Source: a virus
Lineage: Duplodnaviria > Heunggongvirae > Uroviricota > Caudoviricetes
IMG/VR virus record: IMGVR_UViG_2909251562_000002
DNA: 28,381 bases
Strand: one strand, 5' to 3'
The notes beneath the pieces are model-generated. The model made no database searches, was not told the DNA's origin, and worked only from the letters and a program-made list of their open reading frames with translations. Below, piece after piece: positions 16,789 through 19,350 of this stretch (positions within the stretch are counted from its first letter, which is position 1; every line of letters starts with the position of its first letter). Position numbers and translations under genes: made by a program.

Positions 16789-17541
16789 TTATCTCGTCAC
16801 CTTCCTCAATTGCGCTTCCGCGTATGCTTCTTCCTGCCAGCACTTTGTTACCAGTTTACCAATGACGTCCGCATACCCCTTATACCACTGATAATCGGTC
16901 AGGTCTGGTACCAGCTTCTGGACATGACGTCGTGCCAGCGTGGTCGGTAAACGACTAAACCGGTTTCCATTACAACGCCCACAAATCTTATATACCGGTA
17001 CGCCATGAAACCGGGTTCTTTTTTCATCCAGAACAATCCCTTTACCCTTACACCCTCTGCACGCTGTGCTGGCTTCGCCCTTACCATGGCAATGCTGACA
17101 TAGTTCCTTCACCCATTCTTCCTTGATTACAGATTCCCCGCGTCTGTAGTGTTTCACCACTTCGCGCAATACATTATAAAATCCCGTACCTGAACAATGC
17201 TCACAGCGAGCCTTACTTGCCGCAGACCTGGAGTAATCAGCAAAGGCAAAACTCACGAGGTAAGGAATAATCTGTAACCGGATTTCTTCACTCAATTTGT
17301 TCAATGTCGGGTTATCCAGTGCCATCGCGTAATTTAGCAGGCCTTCAATCGCAAACTGAGGGTCCTGAACACCAACTTTTGCCAGAAATAAGGCCAACCC
17401 AAGTGGTGCTTTCGACTGCACCATCCCCTGCGCTGCCATTACATCCGTAATTGTTAAACAACCGGTGCCTGTCGCTGGAGCGTCATCGCTCAATTTTGGA
17501 GATTTTGGGGAGTAATATTTTGGTAAGGCTTCAAGGTTCAT
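16789..17541 (-). CDS. quuQ: Late-gene antitermination protein Q, 250 aa from MNLEAL
   Basis: Cys-rich zinc motif (CEHCSGTG...CQHCHGKG...CRGCKGKG); GGAGA ribosome-binding site before the internal ATG. Confidence 0.9.
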   Translation of the reverse strand: MNLEALPKYYSPKSPKLSDDAPATGTGCLTITDVMAAQGMVQSKAPLGLALFLAKVGVQDPQFAIEGLLNYAMALDNPTLNKLSEEIRLQIIPYLVSFAFADYSRSAASKARCEHCSGTGFYNVLREVVKHYRRGESVIKEEWVKELCQHCHGKGEASTACRGCKGKGIVLDEKRTRFHGVPVYKICGRCNGNRFSRLPTTLARRHVQKLVPDLTDYQWYKGYADVIGKLVTKCWQEEAYAEAQLRKVTR

Positions 17542-17554
17542 GCTCGTTCTCCAC

Positions 17555-18604
17555 TTACGCCAGTACGCCAATTGCCAGCGCGCGATCGATAAAACGAAAT
17601 ATCAGCTCCAGTTGGGAGCCATACTTATCTTCAAATGCCACTGTATCCGTATGCAGCTCGTTGTGATGCTTTCTGCACAAAGGCAACACAAAGAGATCAT
17701 GTGCTTTTGTTCCCATTCCGCCCTGCCCGTGACCAATCAGATGATGCGGATCGTCGGCTGGCATACCGCAGCAAGCACACGGCTGTGTCTTAACCCAACG
17801 TGTGTATTTCTCCTTAACCCAGCGGCGACGTTTAGGCAGCTTCATGAAAGATTCCGGAGACTCTGGATCAACGGTGATGCTTACCACCGTCTTTTCCTGT
17901 GGTGATTTTTGTTGCTGGTGGGCGTAAGGCAACGGTGCAAGATTTTTTGTGCGTTGTTTCAATATGCTGGTGGCGGTCTGCTCTCCCGGTACGATGTCGC
18001 TTTCGCGGTACACCGAGCAGATTTTTTCCGCTGGTAATCCCAGCGAACGACGCGATACAGCCTCAGGTAGTGCATCCACCACCTGATTGCAGACCGCCCA
18101 CCAGGATAATTCAGCCAAAGATAATTCCCGCTCCTGCGTACCGCTTATTGCGTGACGGATGACGTCAATCACCCATGCTGTCAGATTTTGTTGAGCAAGC
18201 AGCTCCAGTGATTCCGATGTCTGGTCACGCAGTTGGTTGTCGCAGTGCCAGCACAACACCATTGCGCCGGTACCATAACGGTGAATGACTGTTTCAGTGT
18301 GATGGTAATCGCCATTAGGCCACTGGCAGGATGTAACATGACGTAATAGCCAGTCGGACAATGCGCCAACGCCGCCAGCAGCACGAATCACCCGTTCGTT
18401 ACTAAAAAACGGCAGCAATGTTTTGTCTTCCGCCATCGGCTGGCGAACGGCAGGAACGACTCCGGATGGCAGATTACGCATGCTTTTTGGTTCCGGTTCC
18501 ACCAGCACTCGAGGATTATGAAATATCTGTATGGATTCACGGCCCGGCTTAAGGACCACCAGCCCAAGCTCAGGCACCAGAACAGGTCTAAGTAATACCC
18601 GCAC
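17555..18604 (-). CDS. ydfU: YdfU-like protein with a C-terminal NinG/Rap-like Cys/His nuclease motif, about 349 aa from a GTG start
   Basis: C-terminal CACCG...HHLIGHGQGG...CRKHHNELH; start placed at GTG 18602-18604, one nt after the stop of the upstream ORF; the track alternative extends to 18643. Confidence 0.7.
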   Translation of the reverse strand: MRVLLRPVLVPELGLVVLKPGRESIQIFHNPRVLVEPEPKSMRNLPSGVVPAVRQPMAEDKTLLPFFSNERVIRAAGGVGALSDWLLRHVTSCQWPNGDYHHTETVIHRYGTGAMVLCWHCDNQLRDQTSESLELLAQQNLTAWVIDVIRHAISGTQERELSLAELSWWAVCNQVVDALPEAVSRRSLGLPAEKICSVYRESDIVPGEQTATSILKQRTKNLAPLPYAHQQQKSPQEKTVVSITVDPESPESFMKLPKRRRWVKEKYTRWVKTQPCACCGMPADDPHHLIGHGQGGMGTKAHDLFVLPLCRKHHNELHTDTVAFEDKYGSQLELIFRFIDRALAIGVLA

Positions 18605-18605
18605 G

Positions 18606-18884
18606 TTACCTCCAGATCCGTTGCTGGAAAGTGCGGGACGCACGTGGTGGGCGTTCGGAATAAGGCAGCCTGACAGAGATTATCCAGTGCCGATAGTCGA
18701 GACTGAGAGCTTTCTTAACCTCGAACCCGCGCCTGCGGTAAGAATGAATCAGCCATTCGGCCTGTTCTGCAGTGCATGGAGGGTGCTGGAACCATTCAGA
18801 CTTGAATGCGTGAGAATACCGCCCGTGCGTGCAGGCAAGAACGGGCGAATTATCAGAATTGTAATATTTTGCGTTGCGTGCCAT
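18606..18884 (-). CDS. Hypothetical protein, 92 aa, abutting the ydfU-like gene
   Basis: ORF track; identity not recognised; it or the next ORF may correspond to rem. Confidence 0.4.
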   Translation of the reverse strand: MARNAKYYNSDNSPVLACTHGRYSHAFKSEWFQHPPCTAEQAEWLIHSYRRRGFEVKKALSLDYRHWIISVRLPYSERPPRASRTFQQRIWR

Positions 18885-18950
18885 CGGTTTTCTCCGGTGG
18901 CACGGTGTTACTCAGCGGGAGTTCAGCCCCGCGCAAGATTGTAGATGAGT

Positions 18951-19202
18951 TTATTCTCCTGAAAAAGCAGAAAAGCCAGCTTTTATTCCGATCTCTTTCA
19001 ATGCCTGTAATGAAGTGACAAACTCACCTTCGCGCAAGATAAATCCGTCCGTGACCCGAGCATCCACAAAATTAATTAACGCAGCCCCATTCTTTCGCAA
19101 ACACATAATGCGGTAATGACTAACAAGATTTCCATTTTCAACGCACACAGCATAGAGGCCATCTTCACAAAAAATTTTACGCAGTTCTTCGATGTTCATC
19201 AT
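18951..19202 (-). CDS. Hypothetical small protein, 83 aa (possibly Rem-like)
   Basis: ORF track; length and position between ydfU and hokD match K-12 rem, but the sequence is not confirmed from memory. Confidence 0.4.
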   Translation of the reverse strand: MMNIEELRKIFCEDGLYAVCVENGNLVSHYRIMCLRKNGAALINFVDARVTDGFILREGEFVTSLQALKEIGIKAGFSAFSGE

Positions 19203-19321
19203 CAGAATCCTTCCGGATAATTAGCTCTCCCCTTTAAGGGACCATCCCTCTTATCCCTGCGCGCTACTTAAGTATTTTTGATTCTATTCCGGCACCGTCC
19301 AGAACTTCAAACGCGTTGAAA

Positions 19322-19350
19322 ATAAAAACAAAAACCCGCCGAAGCGGGTT
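19322..19350 (-). terminator. Intrinsic terminator of the relB-relE-hokD operon
   Basis: Hairpin CCCGC-CGAA-GCGGG followed by a T-run on the minus strand. Confidence 0.65.

Follow-up and report, generated by a model that had tools for sequence, protein, structure and literature searches.

Two neighboring genes directly ahead of a Q antiterminator gene raise three questions: to which nuclease family does the larger one belong, is the smaller one a genuine gene, and are the two expressed as a pair? Both lie on the minus strand of a 28,381-nucleotide stretch of Caudoviricetes DNA (IMG/VR record IMGVR_UViG_2909251562_000002; hereafter, the window), which is a Qin-type lambdoid prophage of Escherichia coli; the block examined here is that of the Qin cryptic prophage. 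The larger gene is ydfU, a well-known “y-gene” of E. coli K-12, and the smaller is a 92-codon open reading frame (ORF) immediately upstream of it. The original prediction, made from the sequence letters alone, had described YdfU as carrying a nuclease motif like that of lambda NinG (Rap) and as apparently coupled in translation to an unrecognized ORF of unknown family. It had also placed ydfU in the nin region before Q, which is where the gene lies, occupying the slot directly ahead of the antiterminator gene ydfT.

The two genes are likely to form a nin-region (early-right) cassette before Q, consisting of a small gene followed by a coupled DUF968 HNH-type nuclease gene, ydfU. This reading stands on the identities of the genes, their family memberships, the anatomy and conservation of their junction, and the selection acting on the small ORF, all of which are observations. 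Its novelty is modest and limited to two points: a selected ORF that is unannotated in E. coli K-12 and a small-gene/nuclease junction that is conserved across four nuclease families.

The ydfU gene and its start codon

The ORF listing for the minus strand contains the 92-aa ORF (positions 18606 to 18884) and a long ORF (17555 to 18643) that can be read as 362 amino acids (aa). RefSeq agrees exactly with a pair of genes 1 nucleotide (nt) apart, encoding YdfU (WP_001265200.1) and a hypothetical protein (WP_012304870.1), and the original prediction had likewise begun ydfU at a GTG one nt past the stop codon of the 92-codon ORF. The alternative start, GTG 18643, which gives the 362-aa reading, was rejected on three grounds. 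The phrog_96 profile aligns to that reading only from residue 14; homologues have ATG at the position of GTG 18604 (MRALL... versus VRVLL...); and the 13 codons that would be overlapped are rich in synonymous change in the frame of the 92-codon ORF (proportion of synonymous differences [pS], 0.23; ratio of nonsynonymous to synonymous change [dN/dS], 0.09).

Full-length YdfU homologues with 77 to 89% identity are common in E. coli. Natural in-frame fusions also occur, joining the small ORF to YdfU (P0122, 438 aa), YdfU to Q (P0123/P0124, 607 aa) and YdfU to RusA (P0175, 447 aa), and some YdfU variants contain internal tandem duplications (P0121/P0127/P0130/P0227). These fused and duplicated variants are probably deletions, frameshifts or assembly artifacts.

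The C-terminal domain of YdfU

YdfU belongs to DUF968, which is matched with an E value of 1.5e-76 (256.6 bits against a cutoff of 27.8) by the whole protein and with 4.4e-54 by its C-terminal 101 aa alone. Weak HNHc_6 and RecA_dep_nuc matches accompany DUF968 in the whole-protein Pfam scan, and the isolated C-terminal 101 aa match HNHc_6 at 29.4 bits (gathering threshold, 26.6) and RecA_dep_nuc with an E value of 2.5e-4. In PHROG, the whole protein matches phrog_96, “HNH endonuclease” (E = 4.8e-171). A profile search of PDB sequences gave marginal matches to McrA (6ghc) and YbcO (3g27), with E values of about 1, aligned over the HNH core.

The Cys/His arrangement that had been noticed at the C terminus (CxxC...HH...H...C..HH..H) is indeed present, extending from C276 to H318 as C276-x2-C279, H287-H288, H292, C310, H313-H314 and H318. 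A set of 33 homologues shows no variation at eight of these residues (C276, C279, H287, H288, H292, C310, H314 and H318), and H313 is in neither the invariant nor the near-invariant list. The catalytic-type His, the metal-binding position in the helix and the CxxC...Cxx(C/H) ligands characteristic of a His-Me finger can all be identified in YdfU.

Profile-profile comparison (hhalign) of a diverse C-domain alignment gave a P value of 1.8e-4 with YbcO-like proteins, 4.5e-4 with NinG and 0.49 with RusA, the negative control. In the YbcO alignment, H288, K300, D303, C310 and H314 of YdfU are paired with AH, K, D, C and H, respectively. Such comparison cannot tell kinship with YbcO from kinship with NinG, so that the likeness it detects is at superfamily level only. 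The published classification is more specific: Jablonska et al. (2017; PMC5714182) placed YdfU (NP_416078) together with YbcO (PDB 3g27) in His-Me group 7 (DUF968 plus DUF1364) and NinG in a separate group, group 24, while hypothesizing for group 7 a role in recombination “similarly to NinG” (PMC5714182).

Direct searches for a NinG relationship were negative. The NinG Pfam family (PF05766) has no match in YdfU at an E value of ≤1, whereas the NinG of Gifsy-2, included as a control in the same search, scores 6.8e-82, and the best BLASTP E value between YdfU and lambda NinG is 0.42. Any likeness to NinG is limited to the HNH core: the Pfam profile spans residues 1 to 199 of the control NinG but matches nothing in YdfU, and hhalign covers only NinG residues 90 to 148. 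The proposed NinG/Rap-like motif is thus correct for the His-Me/HNH superfamily and incorrect for the NinG family.

RusA is encoded directly beside DUF968 genes in several prophages, and YdfU therefore parallels YbcO, which is found in ybcO-rusA order in DLP12-type regions, rather than being a substitute for a resolvase. As judged from sequence, YdfU is a putative HNH-type nuclease of the YbcO/DUF968 group and not a member of the NinG family, an assignment that is already published and serves here as the correction of a label.

The 92-codon ORF upstream of ydfU

Comparative sequence evidence indicates that the 92-codon ORF is a real gene under purifying selection. Synonymous change is plentiful in the codons for its predicted folded core and basic tail (pS of about 0.2), in both of which dN/dS is low (Table 1). 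Residues 1 to 26, in contrast, are predicted to be disordered and evolve neutrally (dN/dS, 1.16), with insertions and deletions only in multiples of three. The protein as a whole is basic, with an isoelectric point (pI) of 10.2, compared with a family median of 9.6.

The 92-aa protein has no match in Pfam or NCBIfam, and to this extent the description of its family as unknown was justified. It does, however, belong to a PHROG family, with residues 27 to 92 matching the full profile (positions 1 to 66 of 66) of phrog_1212 with an E value of 1.7e-35. No specific fold match was found for the small protein, and an SH2-like domain is supported neither by the SH2 fold nor by a significant sequence match. 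Lambda NinD, NinE, NinF and NinH show no similarity to it (P of at least 0.3).

A search of 5.8 billion proteins returned 129 close cluster representatives, nearly all of them 90 to 92 aa long; every one with a named source comes from Escherichia or Shigella. About 300 more distant representatives are also known from the searches, and close and distant ones alike are standalone proteins, of 66 to 92 aa overall. Homologues of 66 to 69 aa with 35 to 50% identity, found by tblastn and profile searches, occur in phages and prophages of Salmonella (Gifsy-2), Klebsiella, Citrobacter, Cronobacter and Enterobacter, as well as in Serratia, Hafnia, Edwardsiella, Yersinia (PY54), Erwinia and Pantoea. Among 1.84 billion representatives, an exhaustive profile search yielded only 114 members, again standalone and with no informative domain fusions, the few longer members being deletion or frameshift chimeras. 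Within these sequence collections, the small phrog_1212 family is confined to lambdoid phages of Enterobacterales.

In the curated annotation of E. coli K-12 MG1655, the 346 bp that separate ydfU (b1560) from rem (b1561) contain no gene. An intact copy of the 92-codon ORF, identical to that in the window, lies there (NC_000913.3, 1644306 to 1644584), and the Prokaryotic Genome Annotation Pipeline (PGAP) calls a hypothetical protein in other genomes. The ORF had therefore been rightly called unrecognized with respect to the curated K-12 annotation, but not with respect to PGAP or PHROG. In three records (ON470583.1, ON470612.1 and ON470619.1) the region of the small ORF is labeled “toxin to Rem” or “mobile element protein”; no basis was found for these labels.

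The junction between the two genes

The junction reads ...CAG CAA CGG ATC TGG AGG TAA C GTG CGG GTA TTA..., in which the TAA of the small ORF (18608 to 18606) is followed by a single base, C (18605), and then by the in-frame GTG of ydfU (18604 to 18602). The stop codon thus lies within a few nucleotides of the next start, and the Shine-Dalgarno (SD) sequence of ydfU lies inside the upstream ORF, where the last two sense codons, for Trp and Arg, provide it. This is the layout of a translationally coupled pair, and the apparent coupling arrangement that had been proposed is upheld by the position of the SD sequence, by the spacing and by the conservation of the junction in about 240 loci, described below. 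The small ORF is plausibly laid out for translational coupling to ydfU.

The minimum free energy (MFE) structure of the mRNA contains a tentative hairpin in which the SD sequence and GTG of ydfU are paired with codons 83 to 88 of the small ORF (CCCGCAC with GUGCGGG and UUUCCAG with CUGGAGG), which would occlude both signals. The hairpin is not significant (z = −0.89; the pairing of the SD sequence is 0.95, compared with 0.81 in a control with shuffled upstream sequence), and its form is not conserved in the other classes of junction.

Linkage of the small gene to recombination nuclease genes

The linkage was examined at 252 loci carrying the small gene, at which the next downstream gene was classified, with the classes confirmed by Pfam controls on representatives; the sample consists of prophage-like viral contigs and is redundant, with small protein, downstream class and gap forming about 139 different combinations. 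The next gene encodes a DUF968 protein at 96 loci, RusA at 64, NinG at 62 and YbcO (DUF1364) at 21. At 243 of the 252, the small gene is situated 0 to 2 nt upstream of a recombination nuclease gene or overlaps it by 1 nt. The few exceptions have a Dcm methyltransferase gene, an exonuclease-like gene, PY54 ORF48 or a 59-aa ORF before NinG at this position.

The form of the junction, Trp-(Arg/Gly)-stop-start, is constant across the related loci (approximately 240) upstream of all four nuclease families. It is TGG AGG TAA C GTG before DUF968 in Qin, TGG AGG GAC TGATG in another DUF968 set, TGG AGG TGA AT GTG before RusA and TGG GGG TGA GC ATG before NinG and YbcO. The small gene therefore ends in conserved Trp-(Arg/Gly) codons that supply the SD sequence of whichever nuclease gene follows.

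The pairing with DUF968 is consistent within the Qin type, with all 80 readable loci having the small gene followed by DUF968. It is also kept, with a 1-nt gap, at four loci of divergent E. coli prophages, in which the small protein is 63 to 67% identical and the flanks differ, with RusA or one of three Q families downstream and different genes upstream. The partner is nevertheless exchangeable across the family, as small proteins that are 92% identical adjoin either NinG or YbcO. The gene upstream of the small ORF also varies and may be rem, a DUF1367/NinB-like gene, ybcN or an 82-aa ORF. DUF968 genes are also found without the small gene: in cdtI, YeP2 and Vibrio Pm34 they follow a KilA-N-type gene, and in P1 the gene follows pdcA, which is unrelated to the small gene. 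In Citrobacter Chris1-type loci (L174-L237), an 82-aa protein (..KGYAVIRCHDGVIVARL..) with the size and position of Rem is encoded about 250 nt upstream of the small gene; judged from size and position, it may be a distant relative of Rem.

Free reassortment of the small gene with four nuclease families, one of which is not HNH, speaks against a product dedicated to one nuclease as its inhibitor or partner. More in keeping with it are a generic accessory protein or, alternatively, a mere conserved module boundary that carries translation signals. Should the linkage prove functional, the recombination nucleases of lambdoid phages would be expected to have an accessory factor or an expression device in common, and mosaic exchange would have an exact module boundary at the junction. 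These findings are not surprising enough to shift current views of lambdoid phages.

Proposed function and alternative explanations

In the proposed cassette, the upstream gene would make a 92-aa protein with a disordered leader, a folded basic core and a basic tail. Ribosomes terminating at the TAA of the small ORF would then reinitiate at the GTG of ydfU or unmask that start, which would tie the synthesis of YdfU to that of the small protein. YdfU itself would have three parts, namely, an N-terminal domain with a Cys/His cluster, a middle region and a C-terminal beta-beta-alpha-metal (HNH/His-Me) domain. By analogy with other nin-region nucleases, it may cut or nick DNA in a metal-dependent manner during phage recombination or replication, presumably alongside a Holliday junction resolvase and not in its place.

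Several points weigh against this proposal. The hairpin that would render coupling obligatory lacks statistical support, and a GGAGG followed by GTG could also serve independent initiation. The AlphaFold2 (AF2) model of YdfU, built from a shallow alignment of 33 close homologues, has a mean predicted local distance difference test (pLDDT) score of only 46.6, with most of the motif region below 50, and the assignment of a His-Me fold therefore rests on sequence profiles and the published classification. No experiments on YdfU, on DUF968 proteins of this kind or on the small protein were found in the searchable literature. Furthermore, Qin is a defective prophage, and insertion sequence (IS) elements break the block in several genomes: IS600, IS1414 and ISEc52 are inserted in the ydfT-ydfU-rem block of several strains (e.g., NC_017646.1, 1851260 to 1854427), and these genes are therefore dispensable to the host.

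The last of these points is also an argument for regarding ydfU in the window as a decaying, nonfunctional remnant of a cryptic prophage, a view to which the truncated, duplicated or fused variants of YdfU lend some color. It is nonetheless very unlikely, because the ydfU ORF is full length, eight of the nine listed Cys/His residues of the motif are invariant in homologues, full-length homologues are common in E. coli (77 to 89% identity), and near-identical copies reside in the genomes of phages PhiR42_1, HannyBb and mEp460. That YdfU is instead a diverged member of the NinG/Rap family, and hence the branch-specific endonuclease or Holliday junction resolvase of this prophage, is highly improbable. 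The two proteins share the slot before Q and the His-Me finger (hhalign P, 4.5e-4), the small gene precedes true NinG in some relatives, and a NinG-like role has been proposed for group 7 (PMC5714182). Against this, YdfU gives no NinG Pfam match at an E value of ≤1 (6.8e-82 in the control), no BLASTP E value below 0.42 against lambda NinG and no resemblance to NinG other than at the HNH core; the comparison with YbcO is at least as good (P = 1.8e-4); the two are classified in different groups, 7 and 24 (PMC5714182); and where RusA adjoins DUF968, as in many prophages, a resolvase is already present.

Two further alternatives concern the small ORF. It might encode no functional protein and be only a leader frame, or DNA that provides a ribosome-binding site and a recombination linker. 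The 26 neutral N-terminal codons (dN/dS, 1.16), the double use of the 3′ end as an SD sequence and the mosaic exchange points at the small-gene/nuclease junction are compatible with this idea, as is a product with no function, Pfam family or specific fold match that is missing from the curated K-12 annotation. We give the idea little credence, since the amino acid sequence of core and tail is under purifying selection (dN/dS, 0.14 and 0.10; pS of about 0.2), the protein is recognizable at 35 to 50% identity across genera with its length conserved, and AF2 predicts a confident, compact fold for the core. Conversely, the small protein might be a dedicated partner of the nuclease (an inhibitor or immunity-like protein, a chaperone or a specificity subunit) acting in a physical complex. 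Its gene directly precedes a recombination nuclease gene at 243 of 252 loci and precedes DUF968 at all 80 readable Qin-type loci and at the four divergent E. coli loci with different flanks; one natural in-frame fusion with YdfU exists (P0122); and a basic protein could bind nucleic acid or an acidic surface. A dedicated partnership is still unlikely, because the downstream nucleases come from four families, with RusA structurally unrelated to HNH; because small proteins that are 92% identical are paired with NinG or YbcO, which speaks against coevolution with one partner; because DUF968 genes also occur without the small gene (cdtI, YeP2, Pm34 and P1); and because, apart from apparent deletion or frameshift variants, no domain fusions of the small protein were found.

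A more speculative extension of the cassette proposal, which we regard as doubtful, is that the phrog_1212 protein serves generally as an accessory in the lambdoid “recombination nuclease slot” and, separately, that the N-domain of YdfU contains a second, degenerate His-Me finger. The accessory could be a regulator, or a targeting factor directed to DNA or to RecA/SSB, and via the conserved coupling junction it would be made in stoichiometric amounts with the nuclease encoded behind it (DUF968, YbcO, NinG or RusA).

Comparison with known systems

The closest known counterpart of YdfU is YbcO of DLP12 and phage 82 (PF07102, “Putative nuclease YbcO,” formerly DUF1364; PDB 3g27), which belongs to the same His-Me group 7 (PMC5714182). 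The HNH cores of the two align as (A/H)H ... G.G.K..D ... C..(C/H)H.E. Their genes share the nin-region position, with ybcO often directly upstream of rusA and Q; in relatives, a gene of the same small family comes before ybcO, and the coupling junction is the same. YbcO differs in being a single domain of 96 aa, whereas YdfU has 349 aa with an additional conserved N-domain and a long middle region, and the sequence likeness of the two is at profile level only (P = 1.8e-4). No demonstrated activity of either protein was found in searchable papers.

Lambda NinG (Rap; PF05766) is a branch-specific recombination endonuclease that shares the His-Me superfamily and the nin position before Q with YdfU, and in some phages its gene follows the same small-gene family. 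Its motif, GHY...N...CxxCN, differs from DPHH...K..D...C..HH.E..H of YdfU. In NinG, the active-site motif (GHY...CxxCN) lies in the second half of a protein of about 200 aa that has no counterpart of the YdfU N-domain. In lambda itself, the place before NinG is taken by NinF, to which the 92-aa ORF bears no relation.

PdcB of phage P1 (“post-doc” gene B) is a full-length homologue of YdfU with approximately 25 to 30% identity and the same N-terminal CQ...LCWH(C/H)DN motif. It has the C-terminal Cys/His nuclease-like motif of YdfU as well, but several residues at catalytic positions differ. In the P1 record, PdcB is stated to be 25% identical to P76162, which we take to be the UniProt accession of YdfU. 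Unlike ydfU, pdcB (L265:1405-2448) is not part of a nin region and is found between phd-doc, which comes first, and lpa. The 66-aa PdcA, encoded upstream of pdcB, is similar in size to members of the phrog_1212 family; it was considered as a relative of the small protein and rejected, as sequence similarity is absent.

DUF968 proteins of phages of Gram-positive bacteria have been described as an Orf-like domain fused to a zinc finger HNH motif (Curtis et al., 2014; PMC4118853). Orf20 of phiETA (Orf/NinB-like plus HNH) shares DUF968 and the C-terminal zinc finger HNH motif with YdfU (PMC4118853), but an N-terminal Orf-like domain of the Orf20 type is not demonstrable in YdfU.

Like the 92-aa ORF, ninD, ninE, ninF, ninH and ylcG are short, tightly packed nin-region genes of unknown role, and the slot that the 92-aa ORF occupies before the nuclease gene is that of ninE in DLP12 and ninF in lambda. 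The 92-aa ORF differs from ninD, ninE, ninF and ninH in belonging to its own family, phrog_1212, and in its distinctive W-(R/G)-stop junction.

The N-terminal and middle regions of YdfU

The N-domain of YdfU matches no Pfam family. With this domain as the query, tblastn retrieved 175 phage records, including Shiga toxin (Stx) phages, SfIV, cdtI, phages of Klebsiella, Yersinia and Vibrio, and P1 PdcB, and the motif C-Q...L-C-W-H-(C/H)-D-N is strongly conserved in a diverse alignment. By eye, C93...DYHH...LCWHCDNQLR parallels C276...DPHH...LCRKHHNELH of the C-domain and also QWDAGHY...CxxCN of NinG. In hhalign comparisons with a diverse alignment, the P value of the N-domain was 0.02 to 0.06 against the C-domain, 0.05 against NinG and 0.4 to 0.7 against YbcO; the comparisons overall, including those with an alignment containing P1 PdcB and Vibrio phages, gave P values of 0.02 to 0.18 and were not significant. 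There is a weak QW..G.Y resemblance of the N-domain to NinG (E = 0.42; P = 0.05). A second, degenerate His-Me finger in this domain is possible, if doubtful. The N-terminal and middle regions gave no sign of an Orf/NinB-like domain (hhalign against lambda NinB, P of at least 0.014 over 15 columns only). The middle region is poorly conserved and probably flexible.

Genomic context

The positions of the main features are given in Table 1.

Table 1. Features of the ydfT-ydfU-rem block (positions refer to the window)
Feature	Position	Strand	Evidence or remarks
ydfT (Q antiterminator gene)	16789..17541	-	Pfam Antiterm, E = 4.2e-54; RefSeq coordinates; 13 nt past ydfU stop
ydfU coding sequence, 349 aa plus stop, GTG start	17555..18604	-	ORF listing; RefSeq WP_001265200.1; DUF968; phrog_96
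Pfam DUF968 (PF06147), YdfU residues 160-346	17567..18127	-	Profile positions 1-171 of 171; residues 173-359 of the 362-aa ORF
HNH/His-Me core with putative zinc ligands, residues 276-318 (CACCG..DDPHH..GH..GTKAHD..PLCRKHHNELH)	17651..17779	-	Invariant Cys/His; HNHc_6; YbcO alignment
YdfU N-terminal domain, residues 1-134	18203..18604	-	phrog_11007 (unknown function)
N-domain Cys/His motif, C93-Q ... L-C118-W-H-C/H-D-N123 (residues 93-123)	18236-18328	-	Kept in P1 PdcB and Vibrio phage homologues
Predicted mRNA hairpin (tentative), ydfU SD and GTG with small-ORF codons 83-88	18598..18637	-	MFE structure
92-codon ORF, hypothetical protein WP_012304870.1, ATG 18884-18882	18606..18884	-	ORF listing; RefSeq; phrog_1212
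ydfU SD sequence, GGAGG, within TGG AGG (Trp-Arg) of small ORF	18609..18613	-	4 nt before GTG
Basic Pro/Arg-rich tail of small protein, residues 76-92 (LPYSERPPRASRTFQQRIWR region)	18609..18659	-	Nearly invariant; dN/dS 0.10, pS 0.19; pI 12
Predicted folded core of small protein, residues 27-75, beta-alpha-beta-beta	18660..18806	-	AF2 pLDDT about 91-94 per 10-residue block; dN/dS 0.14
N-terminal extension of small protein, residues 1-26, Escherichia-specific	18807..18884	-	Missing from 66-69 aa homologues; pLDDT < 50; dN/dS 1.16
GGAG ribosome-binding site of small ORF	18892..18895	-	Read from sequence; 7 nt before ATG
rem	18951..19202	-	RefSeq; phrog_340; upstream of small ORF, 66-nt gap

A 1.9-kb query around ydfU is 100% identical to E. 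coli chromosomes, in which the RefSeq order is ydfT (antitermination protein Q), ydfU (DUF968 domain-containing protein), the hypothetical protein gene and rem, followed by hokD and relE/relB. The block has matches in 4919 of 5426 complete E. coli genomes, and 2401 hold most of it. Sequenced phages carry the same block as well (PhiR42_1, 99.8%; HannyBb, 93.2%; mEp460_ev081, 93.9%), and it is therefore not merely prophage debris.

The interval from rem to the small ORF contains no terminator-like site. A strong terminator-like hairpin (AACCCGC-TTCG-GCGGGTT plus a T run) is located at positions 19333 to 19350 on the minus strand, between hokD and rem and thus upstream of rem. In Stx and PPompW phages, megablast similarity (84%) spans the small gene and continues over three-quarters of ydfU from its 5′ end, stopping about 300 nt short of the stop codon. 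This end of similarity (window positions 17555 to 17854 compared with 17854 to 19300) suggests either a mosaic breakpoint or faster divergence of the HNH-encoding end of the gene.

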